Positions 29,591 through 34,830 of a DNA stretch of 64,000 nucleotides are shown one piece after another. The position numbers were made by a program, and so were the translations under genes. Position 1 is the stretch's first letter. Every line of letters begins with the position of its first letter. The notes under the pieces are model-generated. The model saw only the letters and a list, made by a program, of their open reading frames with translations. It had not been told where the DNA came from and made no database searches. Source of the DNA: Polyangiales bacterium (lineage in GTDB: Bacteria > Myxococcota_A > Polyangia > Polyangiales > Ga0077539); NCBI GenBank assembly GCA_044229975.1, contig JBGARZ010000001.1, positions 416,001-480,000 of the forward strand, read 5' to 3'.

Positions 29591-30790
29591 TCACACTTCG
29601 TCGAAGGTGCGTCGCGCGGCGACCCGATCGAGGATGCGATCGGCGACCTCGACCTTCGACAATCGCGGCAGCGCCTCGACCTCCGACGCGGTCACCAACG
29701 TGACAAGGTTGTCCTCCCCTTCGAAGCCATCGACCGCGAGGTTGGCCACCACGAGGTCACAGCCCTTGCGCTTGAGCTTGTCGCGGGCGCGCTCGACGAG
29801 CTCGCTGGTCTCGAGCGCGAAGCCCACCAGCATCGGGCCGTCGGGCGCGCGATGGGCGCCGAGCTCGGCGAGGATGTCGGGGTTCTTCACGAGGCGCACC
29901 GTGAGCTCGTCGGCGGACTTCTTGATCTTCTCCCCGGCGACGTCGGCGGGGCGGTAATCGGCGACGGCCGCGGCCATCACCACGGCGTCCGCTCCGACGC
30001 TCGCAGTCATCACCGCGTCGCGCATCTCCCTCGCACTTCGCACGGCCACCACGGTCACACCTCCCGGCGGCGTGAGAGCGCTCGGACCGCTCACCAGCAC
30101 CACGCTCGCACCACGGGCGCGCGCCCGCGCGGCGAGGGCGTAGCCCATGCGACCCGACGACCGGTTGCCGACGAAGCGCACCGGATCGATGGCTTCGTGG
30201 GTGCCGCCCGCGCTGACGACGACACGACGCCCGGCGAGGTCTTGCGGCGTGAGCGCGCGCGCGGCAGCCAGTGCGATGTCCTCGGGCTCGACCATGCGAC
30301 CGATGCCGCTCTCGCCGCTCGCGAGCGGGCCCACCGCGGGCCCCGCGAAGACGACACCACGCGCCGCGAGGAGGGCGACGTTGGCGTGCGTGGCGGGGTG
30401 TTCCCACATGCGCGGGTGCATCGCGGGGGCGACCACGACGGGGCCGCGCGCGGCGAGCAGGCAGGTGGTGGCGAGGTCGTCGGCGAGGCCGTGGACCATG
30501 CGCGCGAGGAGGTCGGCGGTGGCGGGCGCGACCACGACGAGGTCGGCCTTCGCCGTGAGCGCGATGTGCAGCTCGCCCGGGTACGACGGGTCCCAGAGGT
30601 CGACGCGCGCGGCGCGGCCCGTGATGCCCGCAAAGGTCACGCCCGAGATGAAGCGCTGCCCCGCGTGGGTGAGCACCGTCTCCACCGAGGCGCCCGCGCG
30701 CTGGAGTTCTCTCGCGACGAGGGCCGACTTGAAGGCCGCGATGCCGCCGCCGACGACGAGCAGCACCTCGCGACCGGTGAGCGCGCTCAT
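29591..30790 (-). CDS. coaBC: Phosphopantothenoylcysteine decarboxylase/ligase CoaBC
   Basis: GGIAAFK, APATAD, PAMHPRMW, DPVRFVGNRSSGRMG, AAVADY, GFALET. Confidence 0.96.
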   Translation of the reverse strand: MSALTGREVLLVVGGGIAAFKSALVARELQRAGASVETVLTHAGQRFISGVTFAGITGRAARVDLWDPSYPGELHIALTAKADLVVVAPATADLLARMVHGLADDLATTCLLAARGPVVVAPAMHPRMWEHPATHANVALLAARGVVFAGPAVGPLASGESGIGRMVEPEDIALAAARALTPQDLAGRRVVVSAGGTHEAIDPVRFVGNRSSGRMGYALAARARARGASVVLVSGPSALTPPGGVTVVAVRSAREMRDAVMTASVGADAVVMAAAVADYRPADVAGEKIKKSADELTVRLVKNPDILAELGAHRAPDGPMLVGFALETSELVERARDKLKRKGCDLVVANLAVDGFEGEDNLVTLVTASEVEALPRLSKVEVADRILDRVAARRTFDEV

Positions 30791-32391
30791 CGGGGTCGCG
30801 CCGCGGGGCGAGCCGGGGCCACTGCGCACCGAGCGCCGCCGCAGCCGGGCTGCACCACGCGACCGGCGGCACCAGCGGCGGACATGGCTTGCGCCGTGAC
30901 GGGCGGGAGCGCGCGGGTGAGGCCCTGGCGAACCATCCAGCCGGTGGTTCCGCAGAAGCCGGGGCGGCGAACCTCCTGGATGTCGTCGCTCTCCACGGGC
31001 TGCGTGAGCGCGAGGTACTGGTCGGCGGTGTACTCGGGGTGGTCGTCCTGGCGCGGGGCCGTGGCGCTGAGGGCCGCGCCGGTGCCGACGTGCCACACCT
31101 GCACCGTCGGGGGATACGCGTCCTGCCAGCGCTCGCGGATGGCCTGGTCGCCCTCGCGCACGATGCGGTAGCGCGTCACGCGGAAGCCCGGAATACCCCG
31201 CTGCGTAAGAACGCGGGTGCCGATGGGGAGGCTCGCGTCGGGCACCTCGCGCTCTTCGAAGCGGTCGACGCGCGGCATGATCTTGCGCACGAAGGTGACC
31301 GAGCGGGCGCGGCGGGCGCCGAGGAGCTCGATGCGCGCGAGGCCGTTGTTGAGCCGCGTGTGGATGACCACCGGGAAGGGCAGCGTGTTGCGCAGGCGCA
31401 GGTTGATGGACGGGTACACGACGGTCGCGTCGAGGCCCATCTTGATGTAGCCGCTGGGGCGCGAGTGGGGCGTGCGGTCGAGCACCTCCATCCCCGCGAA
31501 GAACGACGCGGCGTGCAGGCTGCCGGCGATCTGGCAGACGCCGCCGCCGACGCCGTCGATGAGCTCTCCCGCCGAGATGACGGTGGCCATGCGGAAGCCG
31601 TTGGCCTCGGAGCGGTCGCCCACGATGCCGTTGAAGTCGAGCACGGCGCCGGGCATCCAGACGTAGCCGTTGATGCGGCTCGCCGCGAGGTGGAGGTTGT
31701 ACGTGCGGTCGCGGTGGTCTTCGTTGGCGTTGTAGTTGGTCTGAAACCAGCCGACGACGGCGTTCATCTCGACGTCGCGGAGCTGGGCCGAGGTCATCGC
31801 GGGGTTGGTGTGTTCGAGCACGGCGTCGAGGCGGGGCTGCCCGCTGGTGAAGGCCGCGTCGAGCTGCGCGAGGGTGCCGAAGACGTCGAGGAAGGTTCCG
31901 CGCCGCTCGGGGATGACGCGGCGTTGCTCGACGTCGATGCGGGCGTCGACGGGCAGGTGGTCGACCTCCTCCTTCAACTGCGCGAGCAGCGGGAGCGCCA
32001 CGGCGCCTTCGAGGCGCACCGGGAGCGGGAGTTCGATCGGCCCGTGCGCGAGGGCGGCGTGGTGACGGACGAGCGCGCTCGACGGGTCGGCCGCGGCGCG
32101 CAGGAGGTGTTCGAGGAGGTGCACGTCGACGCGGGCGCCGAGGGACTCGCGGGTGCGTTCGAGGGAGTGGTCCTCGGCCACGACGGTGACGCGCTCGCGG
32201 AGGAAGGCGCGGGCGAGCGAGAGGGCCTGCGCGTGCGGGTCGTGGCTCAGCGTGACGGGCCGCCCGCGAACGCGCACCCGCGGGACACCCGCCGCCTGCG
32301 GCGCGCGCTCGGGGAGCAGGAGGTAGCCGATGCCGCCGCCCATGAGGGCGAAGGCGAGGGACAGCGCAACCAGTCGCAGCCAGCGGGTCAT
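30787..32391 (-). CDS. VanW-family membrane-anchored protein
   Basis: N-terminal TM; RTYNLHLAASRING, GVGGGVCQI, RTPHS, GLDATV. Confidence 0.88.
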   Translation of the reverse strand: MTRWLRLVALSLAFALMGGGIGYLLLPERAPQAAGVPRVRVRGRPVTLSHDPHAQALSLARAFLRERVTVVAEDHSLERTRESLGARVDVHLLEHLLRAAADPSSALVRHHAALAHGPIELPLPVRLEGAVALPLLAQLKEEVDHLPVDARIDVEQRRVIPERRGTFLDVFGTLAQLDAAFTSGQPRLDAVLEHTNPAMTSAQLRDVEMNAVVGWFQTNYNANEDHRDRTYNLHLAASRINGYVWMPGAVLDFNGIVGDRSEANGFRMATVISAGELIDGVGGGVCQIAGSLHAASFFAGMEVLDRTPHSRPSGYIKMGLDATVVYPSINLRLRNTLPFPVVIHTRLNNGLARIELLGARRARSVTFVRKIMPRVDRFEEREVPDASLPIGTRVLTQRGIPGFRVTRYRIVREGDQAIRERWQDAYPPTVQVWHVGTGAALSATAPRQDDHPEYTADQYLALTQPVESDDIQEVRRPGFCGTTGWMVRQGLTRALPPVTAQAMSAAGAAGRVVQPGCGGARCAVAPARPAARPR

Positions 32392-32509
32392 TGGGAGCTC
32401 CGACCCGGCGGTAGACCGGCGGAGCCAGCGGGTCAACATCCCGGCGCCCTCCCCCCCGGCCGGCGACCCATCGGGACCTCCCGCCCATTGGTGGCAATGG
32501 AGAGTGCGT

Positions 32510-32563
32510 TGAAAAATAATTGATCACCGTGCTTGACGGATATCGGATGTGTCGGTTATCCCT
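32510..32563 (+). promoter_or_regulatory. Putative sigma70 promoter with AT-rich UP-like element for the leader/tRNA operon
   Basis: AAAAATAATT at 32512-32521; TTGACG at 32533-32538; weak -10 (TATCCC near 32557). Confidence 0.5.
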
Positions 32564-32591
32564 TGTGGGCACTCAAGGAAGTGCCTTCGCC

Positions 32592-32720
32592 ATGAACCTC
32601 CTCTTCCTCCACTCCCGCTGCCCTTCACGATCGTCGTCCGGACCGTCATCCAGTCGGTCCAGTCGCTCGTGTTGTTGCGTCGACTGCGGGAGCAGGAGCC
32701 GCGCGCTTTCATCGGGATAA
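32592..32720 (+). CDS. Putative Ser/Cys-rich attenuator leader peptide (42 aa)
   Basis: MNLLFLHSRCPSRSSSGPSSSRSSRSCCCVDCGSRSRALSSG: 15 Ser, 5 Cys; AAGGA upstream; directly precedes a hairpin and Ser/Cys tRNA genes. Confidence 0.8.
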   Translation: MNLLFLHSRCPSRSSSGPSSSRSSRSCCCVDCGSRSRALSSG

Positions 32721-32750: not shown

Positions 32751-32793
32751 GAGGCCGGCTCCTCCCCGACGGGAAGGGTCGGCCTCTCTCGTT
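32751..32793 (+). terminator. Attenuator terminator-like hairpin
   Basis: GAGGCCGGCTCCTCCC-CGAC-GGGAAGGGTCGGCCTC (15 of 16 positions pair, including G-U), followed by TCTCGTT. Confidence 0.75.
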
Positions 32794-32896: not shown

Positions 32897-32969
32897 CACG
32901 CCGCTCACCAGTGTGGAGCACCGGTCTGCAAAACCGGGCGTACGGGGGCAGCACCCGTCGGCGTGTCCA
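32897..32969 (+). tRNA. Atypical tRNA-Cys(GCA)
   Basis: Acceptor CACGCCG/CGGCGTG, U73, encoded CCA; anticodon arm CCGGT-CTGCAAA-ACCGG; T-arm ACGGG-GGCAGCA-CCCGT (non-canonical loop); irregular D-arm. Confidence 0.8.
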
Positions 32970-32987
32970 GTGATGGCTGGAATCTAC

Positions 32988-33073
32988 GGAAGGGCAAGCC
33001 GATTGGTTGACGGCACCTGTCCTGAAAATAGGCGAGCGTGATTGCCTTGGGGGTTCGACTCCCTCCCCTTCCG
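32988..33073 (+). tRNA. Divergent tRNA-Ser(UGA)
   Basis: Acceptor GGAAGGG/CCCTTCC, G73; D-stem GCCG/CGGC; anticodon arm CCTGT-CCTGAAA-ATAGG (C33); long variable region; T-loop TTCGACT. Confidence 0.85.
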
Positions 33074-33137
33074 CCCACTCTTGTTCATTGAAGGAGACGA
33101 CATCATGTGACGGCATCGAGACGAGTGTGATTCCTCT

Positions 33138-33222
33138 GGAAGGGCAAGCCGATTGGCTGACGGCACCGGCTTCGAATACCGGCGAGCGATGAGCCTTGGG
33201 GGTTCGACTCCCCCTCCTTCCG
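33138..33222 (+). tRNA. Divergent tRNA-Ser(CGA)
   Basis: Acceptor GGAAGGG/TCCTTCC, G73; anticodon loop TTCGAAT (CGA at 33173-33175); T-arm GGGGG-TTCGACT-CCCCC. Confidence 0.85.
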
Positions 33223-33245
33223 CCGTTTCTCCGCGTTGTTTCTTT

Positions 33246-33331
33246 GGAGGATAGGGCATCTGGTCTGCCGAGCGGTCTGCTACAGCGTCGCCCGCGGAAG
33301 CGGGTAGTCGGTTCGATTCCGGCATCCTCCG
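33246..33331 (+). tRNA. Divergent tRNA-Ser(GCU)
   Basis: Acceptor GGAGGAT/ATCCTCC, G73; D-stem GGCA/TGCC; loop CTGCTAC; variable arm GCCCGC-GGAA-GCGGGT; T-arm GTCGG-TTCGATT-CCGGC; one G-G mismatch in the anticodon stem. Confidence 0.82.
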
Positions 33332-33350
33332 CTGTTTCCTTTGTATGTTT

Positions 33351-33438
33351 GGAGGCTACGACATCGGGTGTGTCAGACACGTTGGAAGCGTGTGGCTCGT
33401 CGCATGGCGAGCAGTCGGTTCGAGTCCGGCAACCTCCG
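33351..33438 (+). tRNA. Divergent tRNA-Ser(GGA)
   Basis: Acceptor GGAGGCT/AACCTCC (one C-A), G73; D-stem GACA/TGTC; ACACG-TTGGAAG-CGTGT; variable arm GCTCGTC-GCAT-GGCGAGC; T-loop TTCGAGT. Confidence 0.85.
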
Positions 33439-33510
33439 CCCCGCCCATGGAACCCCAGCGGCACGTCGCCGGGTCGCCTCCTCCCACGCGCTCACGAGAG
33501 GCGTCGCCTC

Positions 33511-34830
33511 TCAGCGTCGACGGCTGCTGGCCGGCCCCCGCGGACGCTTCGACGGAGCGGCGACGTAGCGACTGACTGCGGATCGTCGCGGATGCGCGCG
33601 CAGGACGCAGGTGACCCTCGCCTCGTCGGCGTCGAACTCCGGCGGCGGGCTCCCGAGGTCCGCCATGGTGCGGCGCATGGTCGGCACGCCCTGCCCCTCC
33701 CCCTGGGCCAGCTTGAGCTGGAGGAAGAACCACGCGAGCGACTGGTTGCGCCACCGCGGCGACTCGCGCCCCTCGCGCAGCGCCTCCAGCGACACGCCGC
33801 GGAGCAGCGCCCCCGGAGACACCGTCTCGACGCGGTCGACGAAGGCCGTCACGCGCGTCGGGTCATCCAGCTCGTAGTCGCGGTGCACCAGGGCGTTGAT
33901 CGCTGCCTCGTGGAGCGCCCGCCGTGGGTACGTCTCGACGTCCGGCACGTCGACGTCGGTCTTCTCGAAGAGCCGCACCACCTCGGCGTCGAGCAGCGCG
34001 AGGAGGCGACGGGCCTGCTCGACGAGCGCGCCGGTGAGCTCGTGGCGCTCCGCGGTTGATTCGGAGCGATCGACGCCCCGGTAGCGCGAGAAGAAGGTCA
34101 CGGCGCCGGGGAAGAAGCGCGTCGGGTCGCGCCCGAAGAGCAGCACCGCGAAGTTGCGTGGCCGTCGCACACCCGTGAGCGCCTCGGTCACGCACAGCGA
34201 CGGCACGAGCGCGTGCAACCGAACACCGTCACCCAGCAGGTCCTCGACGCCGAGCCCATCGTCGACGCGCCCGATGCGGAGGAGGGTGTCGCGCAACGCC
34301 AGCAGGTCGAGGTCGGCGACCGTCGCCGTCGCGCACGGGCGACGATCCCAGGGCTCCAGCGCCCCCTTCCGCGTCAGCAGCTCGCGCAGCACGCCGTTGC
34401 GCGCCTCTTCCGTGCTCGACCCGCGCCGGACGTGGTGGAGCGTGTTTCCGTCGGCGTGCCGGAACATGTGCGCGTGCGGCGTCGCGGGCTGTACGAACAC
34501 CAGCACCCGGCGGTCATCGGTGTCCGCGGGCAGCTCGTGGACGAGCGGAGTGATCGCCGGGGAGACCCGATCGCGGCAGCGCGTGAGCACCATGCCGACG
34601 ACCTCCTTCAGTCGCGTCGCCGTGAGGCCAACGCGCAGCAGCTTCGGGAAGCCGTGCTCGTCCTTCGTCTCGCTGGCGCCGCACACCACGTAGCCGCCGC
34701 CGAGGTTGGGGAGGTCATTGGCGAAGGCCGAGAGCGTCGCCACCACGCCGTCGGGGCTGGCGACGTTTTCCTTCCACTCGACCTGCTCGCTCTCGCGAGC
34801 TGCCAGCTCCCGCAGATCGATCGCGACCAT
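33511..34830 (-). CDS. Schlafen/AlbA_2-domain protein with HATPase_c_4-like C-terminal domain
   Basis: ESEQVEWKE, SAFAN...GGGYVVCG; YPRRALHEAAINALVHRDY, SPG, RN...GQG. Confidence 0.85.
   Translation of the reverse strand: MVAIDLRELAARESEQVEWKENVASPDGVVATLSAFANDLPNLGGGYVVCGASETKDEHGFPKLLRVGLTATRLKEVVGMVLTRCRDRVSPAITPLVHELPADTDDRRVLVFVQPATPHAHMFRHADGNTLHHVRRGSSTEEARNGVLRELLTRKGALEPWDRRPCATATVADLDLLALRDTLLRIGRVDDGLGVEDLLGDGVRLHALVPSLCVTEALTGVRRPRNFAVLLFGRDPTRFFPGAVTFFSRYRGVDRSESTAERHELTGALVEQARRLLALLDAEVVRLFEKTDVDVPDVETYPRRALHEAAINALVHRDYELDDPTRVTAFVDRVETVSPGALLRGVSLEALREGRESPRWRNQSLAWFFLQLKLAQGEGQGVPTMRRTMADLGSPPPEFDADEARVTCVLRAHPRRSAVSRYVAAPSKRPRGPASSRRR

Follow-up and report, generated by a model that had tools for sequence, protein, structure and literature searches.

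A serine- and cysteine-rich leader ORF as the likely sensor of a transcription attenuator ahead of five redundant tRNA genes in a Polyangiales bacterium

We analysed a 64,000-nt stretch of DNA (the window) from the 10-Mb, 71% GC genome of a Polyangiales bacterium (G000; C-numbers denote its contigs). An ORF of 42 codons upstream of five spare tRNA genes is a Ser/Cys-rich leader; it likely acts as sensor in a ribosome-coupled transcription attenuator controlling these redundant tRNAs. A promoter-like site, the leader, a hairpin and the five tRNA genes share one orientation (Table 1). The match between leader and tRNAs is well supported at the level of the amino acid, and a choice between terminator and antiterminator set by ribosome position is predicted by folding models. 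Most spare tRNA clusters of the genome bear a matching mini-gene; therefore, each backup set is likely made only upon slow reading of its own codons.

Results

A compact unit of redundant tRNA genes

All five anticodons of the unit are redundant, since a housekeeping copy of each is encoded elsewhere in the genome, and just 46-61 of 73-89 positions are identical between the window genes and these copies. With tRNAs encoded in large arrays of the same family the five genes share 77-90% identity, as exemplified by tRNA-Ser(CGA), 90% identical to a large-array tRNA of the relative G019, and by tRNA-Cys(GCA), 87% identical over 70 nt to a relative's array tRNA-Cys. The latter gene was missed by both ARAGORN and Rfam; relaxed ARAGORN calls were set aside because they were swamped by false tRNAs. 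The Ser genes display G1-C72, G2-C71, A3-U70 and G73 together with a long variable arm; U73 is present in the Cys gene. We take these features to be identity elements for the cognate synthetases. The non-canonical T loop of the spare tRNA-Cys is common to its array homologs, and the tRNA-Ser(TGA) of one metagenome locus (L095) has U at position 33, where the window copy has C.

Only tRNA genes follow the leader, without any gene for amino-acid synthesis or activation, and the next protein gene is convergent. That gene encodes Schlafen-type domains, and bacterial Schlafens have been reported as tRNA-cleaving phage defences. A functional link to this neighbour was nonetheless rejected, because no homolog occurs in any fetched locus of other genomes. 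The relatives' fetched loci likewise contain no VanW homolog beside the module.

Table 1. Features of the leader, the tRNA unit and the flanking genes (positions in the window)
Feature	Position	Strand	Basis or remarks
CoaBC-type flavoprotein gene	29594-30796	-	divergent neighbour
VanW/G5 protein gene	30790-32391	-	below NCBIfam cut-offs; divergent neighbour
Predicted sigma-70-type promoter	32512-32562	+	A-tract 32512-32519, -35 TTGACG 32533-32538, -10 TATCCC 32557-32562
Possible ribosome-binding site AAGGAAG	32575-32581	+	by eye; relatives purine-rich at the equivalent place
Leader ORF, 42 codons + TAA (15 Ser + 5 Cys)	32592-32720	+	codon counts, background ORFs, relatives
Predicted antiterminator strand in leader codons 33-37	32688-32701	+	core AGGAGCCG 32694-32701, complementary to the hairpin 5' arm
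Terminator-like hairpin (32751-32786) and weak pyrimidine tail UCUCGUU	32751-32793	+	folding energy, position in relatives
Spare tRNA-Cys(GCA), non-canonical T loop, encoded CCA	32897-32969	+	cloverleaf; relatives' array tRNA-Cys; housekeeping copy G000 C19:354421
Spare tRNA-Ser(TGA), C not U at position 33	32987-33077	+	ARAGORN; housekeeping copy C11:142229
Spare tRNA-Ser(CGA)	33138-33224	+	ARAGORN; housekeeping copy C32:722964
Spare tRNA-Ser(GCT)	33246-33332	+	ARAGORN; housekeeping copy C14:193817
Spare tRNA-Ser(GGA)	33350-33441	+	ARAGORN; housekeeping copy C32:722828
Schlafen AlbA_2 + HATPase_c_4 gene	33511-34827	-	convergent on the tRNA array

The leader is exceptionally rich in Ser and Cys codons

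Ser and Cys account for 20 of the 42 leader codons (48%), namely TCC 4, TCG 4, TCA 3, AGT 2, AGC 2, TCT 0, TGC 3 and TGT 2, with a TGT-TGT-TGC run at codons 27-29. This recount reproduces exactly the numbers, including the Cys run, of an initial annotation of the ORF. The leader uses 13 amino acids and lacks Lys, Trp, Tyr, Glu, Ile, Gln and Thr. The annotation had proposed a comparison of its Ser+Cys content with background ORFs, in which the leader indeed stands out: among 7,254 six-frame ATG ORFs of 35-50 codons from the same genome, a set that takes in shifted frames and averages 17% Ser+Cys, only two reach its level, and the leader itself is probably neither of them, given that its own frame enters the set at 57 codons, outside the 35-50 class. 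In the other five frames of the leader DNA, Ser+Cys amounts to 2-8 of 42. The background, frame and permutation controls (the latter described below) thus answer the caveat, raised along with the initial reading, that shifted frames of GC-rich DNA are naturally rich in Ser and Arg.

That reading further held that each of the five downstream anticodons finds cognate codons in the leader and that TCA, AGT and TGT appear uncommon in neighbouring GC3-rich genes. Both statements stand. Cognate codons for all five are present, even within codons 1-31, and TCA, AGT and TGT occur at 1.41, 0.76 and 1.14 per 1,000 codons in 3,546 long gene-like ORFs. TCA and AGT together make up 5/15 leader Ser codons versus 4% in genes (P = 2e-4). 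A or T at the third position is not specific to Ser/Cys codons (7/20, versus 5/21 of the other leader codons; Fisher p = 0.51). The codon spread as such is matched by the background: among 138 ORFs that contain 13-17 Ser and one or more Cys, 63 cover all five anticodon classes. A codon for each of the five anticodons is unremarkable once 15 Ser codons are given.

A predicted switch couples ribosome position to a downstream hairpin

The predicted promoter in Table 1 is the best site by a fixed rule, with TTGACG and TATCCC spaced by 18 nt; an alignment with relatives (A1) shows no change in TTGACG or in the TA of the -10 box. A promoter proposed by a stock scan at 32491-32520 was rejected because the site is not conserved, and the longer in-frame starts TTG 32520 and ATG 32547 were rejected because they lie upstream of or inside the conserved promoter.

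Past the leader stop, the terminator-like hairpin folds with -32.7 kcal/mol (z = -3.08), a stability reached by 0/200 shuffles. Its 5' arm finds an 8-nt Watson-Crick partner in the leader that ends 19 nt before the stop's end (matched by 7/1,000 shuffles), and the resulting antiterminator duplex has a predicted energy of -25.3 kcal/mol (4/300 shuffles as good). An equivalent hairpin occurs 33-44 nt past the leader stop in 15/15 loci examined. When the whole leader was searched for the longest stretch that pairs with the hairpin arm, this stretch ended 15-24 nt upstream of the stop in 12 of these loci, with antiterminator letters that differ between loci yet stay complementary; the remaining 3/15 fail this longest-partner test. 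Shuffled leaders also give the hairpin arm some partner (median 0.35-0.72), and duplex energy is no better than that of shuffles in two congeners, G004 and G005, and in the metagenome locus L097 (120, 100 and 164 of 300, respectively). The 7-nt antiterminator core of G004 sits at the conserved place (38/1,000 shuffles).

We then modelled stalling by setting the ribosome on each codon and folding only the RNA ahead of it, RNA behind being ignored. With the A site at codon 31 or earlier the hairpin arm was captured by the antiterminator, at codon 32 it was partly captured, and from codon 33 on it was not. The predicted boundary of this sensing zone falls 9-13 codons before the stop in 15/15 loci. 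In the window leader, the zone (codons 1-31) comprises 12 amino acids and contains 11 Ser and 4 Cys codons (TCC 4, TCG 3, TCA 2, AGT 2, TGC 2 and TGT 2); both AGC codons (34 and 36) are antiterminator letters and, together with TCA40 and TCG41, lie outside it. In the full equilibrium fold the hairpin wins wherever the ribosome sits, and the choice between terminator and antiterminator must therefore be kinetic.

The proposed sequence of events would be as follows. A ribosome held at codons 1-31 would leave the antiterminator segment free to capture the hairpin arm as it is made, so that the terminator could not form and the spare tRNAs would be transcribed; a ribosome past codon 32 would cover the segment, allowing the hairpin to close. 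Slow reading of Ser or Cys codons, owing to uncharged, cleaved or scarce tRNA, would be the trigger, and the spare tRNAs, presumably charged and helpful, the remedy, which would close a negative feedback loop. A T-box riboswitch found no support, as Rfam gave no T-box match; at the gathering threshold, its matches over the whole window amount to one tRNA.

The leader might instead sense Ser and Cys but act through Rho-dependent termination, or through folding or processing of the tRNA precursor, rather than through an intrinsic terminator. The weak U-tract at the window hairpin, where a U-tract terminator scan made no call, fits such an output. So do the other short-leader modules of the genome, which are devoid of a window-type hairpin and show hairpins over the stop codon instead, and the complementarity of Tyr/His leaders to the 5' strand of a tRNA. 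However, the equivalent hairpin of relatives is followed by better tails (UUCUGCAUUU or UUUUUC), its distance to the stop is fixed, and antiterminator complementarity covaries, all of which makes this alternative output unlikely.

Most spare tRNA modules across the genome carry matched leaders

We applied one rule, that is, the best promoter within 450 nt followed by the first ATG, to all tRNA units of the genome; the leaders had been inspected before the rule was fixed, which was accordingly not blind. Of 60 units called, 12 single low-score calls were dropped, and 3 of the remaining 48 were too near a contig end, leaving 45. Nine of these are second-copy units: Cys/Ser (window), Glu/Glu/Arg/Asp (C2), Glu/Arg/Asp (C33), Tyr/His (C4), Tyr (C34), Asn/Lys/Arg (C19), three Leu genes (C19), two Gly genes (C36) and Trp/Phe/Gln/Gln (C16). 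A short closed leader of 11-42 codons precedes eight of the nine, and cognate amino acids are enriched at P<0.01 in six; the Leu (P = 0.07) and single-Tyr (P = 0.06) units are not significant. The Trp/Phe/Gln/Gln unit fails, its ORF running through the first tRNA with 1/47 cognate codons (P = 0.92). The other 36 units divide into 20 with a promoter but no ATG between it and the tRNA, 10 in which the rule finds no promoter, and 6 with ORFs, for which P is 0.33-1.

When, after removal of the two paralogous copies, seven leaders were confronted with seven tRNA sets, the true pairing was the best of 5,040 permutations, and it was also the best of 720 permutations without the window leader. This genome-wide pattern is the strongest evidence for codon-matched leaders. 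The window unit would thus be one of several modules (Glu/Asp/Arg twice, Tyr/His twice, Asn/Lys/Arg, Gly and Leu), each with its own matched leader. As to conservation, HHPHRY ends the Tyr/His leader in all four copies, and the C2 leader with its Asp/Arg/Glu run is conserved in G005. No counterparts of the Asn/Lys, Leu, Gly and Trp/Phe/Gln modules were found in 30 family genomes, where matches were single tRNA-sized stretches or a repeat; none was found of the C33 module.

Several of these loci have peculiarities of their own. In the Tyr/His modules (L050, which is G000 C4; G000 C34:314100-314900; L061 and L058), seven bases of the His-Pro-His codons exactly complement the 5' acceptor strand of tRNA-Tyr; the G005 copy shows a compensatory change and the G004 copy a single mismatch. 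Where the ribosome sits on this leader may control tRNA folding. As a general rule, pairing of the leader with the 5' strand of the first tRNA was rejected, a perfect 7-nt match being present in 3/4 Tyr/His copies and 0/6 other modules. A release-factor-like gene, labelled by eye, follows the Tyr/His module. The Trp/Phe/Gln/Gln unit (L051, G000 C16:41900-42700) has a good promoter and a second ATG frame that includes Gln and Trp codons and stays open up to the tRNA, and is possibly preceded by a decayed leader.

Breadth of the leader goes along with breadth of the tRNA set

Other genera of the family encode homologous Cys and Ser tRNAs inside large arrays, with 11-29 ARAGORN calls per fetched locus, some loci ending at contig ends. 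Nine of these arrays, several of them close kin, have an intact upstream region, and in 9/9 the leader (69-96 codons) contains all 20 amino acids; in 8/9 all 20 lie inside the sensing zone. Three more arrays are cut by contig ends. For comparison, at lengths of 69-96 codons all 20 occur in 128/6,418 background ORFs and in 4-11% of windows taken inside genes. A further large tRNA array occurs in G025, G029 and G009 (L072, L073 and L082), outside the nine-leader count. In G000 itself, two leaders with a window-type hairpin (L056, G000 C2:9300-11000, and L057, C21:31100-33100) each contain 19/20 amino acids and head a divergent tRNA together with a gene that, judged by eye, is TROVE-like or HNH-like; they are probably general translation-stress sensors.

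Such leaders raise the question of whether the window leader is equally generic, that is, opened by any stall, for instance under an antibiotic, its Ser/Cys richness being an untuned by-product of repeat slippage. In our model, any stall within codons 1-31 indeed gives one and the same predicted fold. One relative's leader carries a TCG-repeat insertion, and that of G004 is only moderately Ser-rich (Ser+Cys 9/39, a level reached by 1,705/7,254 background ORFs), which, like the 19-amino-acid leaders just described, would agree with generic sensing. Nevertheless, the leader-to-cluster matching ranks first of 5,040, narrow clusters have narrow leaders whereas large arrays have all-20 leaders, and the Cys run is conserved although triple-Cys motifs occur in just 53/7,254 background ORFs. 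Untuned sensing is consequently rather improbable, and we favour a leader tuned to Ser and Cys.

The Cys/Ser module is kept in some relatives

The module layout was found in 2/8 congeners searched (G004 and G005) and in five metagenome loci (L095-L099), the latter representing two sequence types near G004; across 300 genomes of the order, one more match, a partial one, turned up outside the family. These relatives are kin and not independent. Their leaders have 39 codons with 6-7 Ser and an S-C-S-C-C run, and the Cys run lies 19-21 nt before the antiterminator core. All five tRNAs are carried by L095-L099; G004 has an interrupted Ser(TGA) gene, and just the Cys, Ser(CGA) and Ser(GCT) genes were found in G005. 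Contigs over the leader were obtained from 2/6 public sequencing runs, one with 9 nt more and the other with 21 nt less, both in frame. Pro-to-Ser and Cys-to-Ser replacements as well as a synonymous Ser substitution are among the changes listed for these contigs. Conservation of the frame in relatives, one of the checks proposed with the initial annotation, came out in its favour, Cys run included.

These comparisons bear on whether the ORF is a chance, untranslated one that precedes a silenced and decaying fragment of some tRNA array acquired by horizontal transfer. The divergence of the spare tRNAs from their housekeeping copies, C33 in Ser(TGA), the patchy distribution and the damaged copies in relatives would all suit decay. 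Start, length, frame and Cys run are conserved, though, indels are multiples of three, and the pattern recurs across the genome, so that we regard a decaying remnant as very improbable. Least plausible, and extremely so, is that the ORF serves to make its peptide, which might bind metal through its many Cys or undergo modification: the Cys cluster is conserved, but the remaining peptide is not, Cys is changed to Ser in two relatives, neither NCBIfam nor Pfam has a family that matches the peptide, and the four annotated flanking genes include no modifying enzyme.

Does the leader distinguish isoacceptors?

The initial annotation had proposed that loss of any one isoacceptor would stall the ribosome, the leader sensing tRNA availability as well as the level of the amino acid. 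The analysis supports a conserved, amino-acid-matched leader tied to a predicted switch; support for a sensor of individual isoacceptors, not of the amino acid alone, is modest, and we hold this part of the claim only tentatively, leaning slightly against it. On its behalf, every anticodon class is represented upstream of the switch in G004, G005 and L097, in spite of only 5 Ser codons in their sensing zones. Arg codons also vary with the Arg anticodon in the paralogous pair of modules, AGG accounting for 0/9 Arg codons before tRNA-Arg-ACG versus 3/8 before tRNA-Arg-CCT (Fisher p = 0.08). In the Leu module, the leader Leu codons are CTG, CTT and TTG and the anticodons CAG, GAG and CAA. Against it, full class cover is expected by chance in ~15% of ORFs (259/1,783 background ORFs) and the three leaders are kin, the G005 leader keeps TCA and TCC codons with no matching tRNA genes found, and the leader of the Asn/Lys/Arg-TCT module contains no AGA or AGG codon.

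Physiology may be brought to bear as well. Extra tRNA would be of little help in plain starvation but would replace tRNA that is cleaved or lost. This logic, together with the spread over all Ser classes, favours isoacceptor sensing, albeit without proof. Loss of a single isoacceptor is a real stress, as PMC10287673 describes a toxin cleaving tRNA-Ser(CGA). It is conceivable, if somewhat doubtful, that backup tRNAs are organised as separate amino-acid-specific modules, each with a leader written in the codons of its own tRNAs, in which loss of one isoacceptor, for instance to an anticodon nuclease, would induce its replacement. On this scheme the Cys/Ser module would derive from a large array with an all-20 leader, tRNA set and leader having been narrowed and the RNA switch kept.

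Discussion

Known attenuators control enzymes for amino-acid synthesis or activation, the pheST leader being one example. The ribosome-mediated attenuators of amino-acid operons, such as trpL, hisL, leuL and thrL, are treated in PMC1183508, whose section 10 describes leaders biased to the single synonymous codon most sensitive to starvation. The window leader resembles these in being short, in containing codons cognate to its output and in a choice between terminator and antiterminator set by ribosome position, here predicted. It differs in that its output consists of tRNA genes rather than enzymes, in that its codons spread over all four Ser classes instead of a single sensitive one, and in the poor U-tract of its hairpin.

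A second point of comparison is the whiB7 uORF of mycobacteria, where stalling in a longer uORF leads to antitermination and the make-up of the uORF determines the amino-acid or tRNA shortage to which it responds (10.1101/2023.06.02.543512). By analogy, the all-20 leaders of the relatives' large arrays may be likened to it. The whiB7 uORF nonetheless controls a transcription factor and senses broadly, whereas the window leader is half Ser/Cys and would directly gate the matching tRNAs; neither a long uORF with nearly all amino acids nor a whiB7/wblC target is found at the window locus.

As for the output, supernumerary tRNA arrays are induced by translational stress, and control of the Anabaena trn operon runs through direct repeats in its promoter, as stated in PMC8421152. 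Redundant anticodons, patchy distribution and a presumed role as backup under translational stress are shared with these L-arrays. They are long, however, while the window unit comprises five genes for two amino acids and a leader switch, and the main text of PMC8421152 contains 0 occurrences of 'leader', 'attenuat' or 'terminator'. A literature search conducted largely among sources other than subscription journals found no published leader-peptide or uORF attenuation of tRNA genes.

The same attenuation logic thus appears here to close a feedback loop on tRNA supply itself, which would account for the activation, outside cyanobacteria, of spare tRNA arrays that are otherwise silent. The family shows both ends of a series, all-20 leaders with large arrays and narrow leaders with small modules, with the same type of hairpin, and one chromosome makes seven natural leader-cluster pairs available.

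Additional features of the spare tRNA loci

Upstream of the window promoter, a palindrome, CATTG-N4-CAATG, lies at 32485-32499 and could be an operator; imperfect palindromes resembling it precede several other spare tRNA modules. Several spare tRNA loci (L052, L056 and L057) have a repeated element inserted inside or next to them, ~120-160 nt in size and bounded by long inverted ends, which is present in multiple copies in the relatives G001, G002, G004 and G021.
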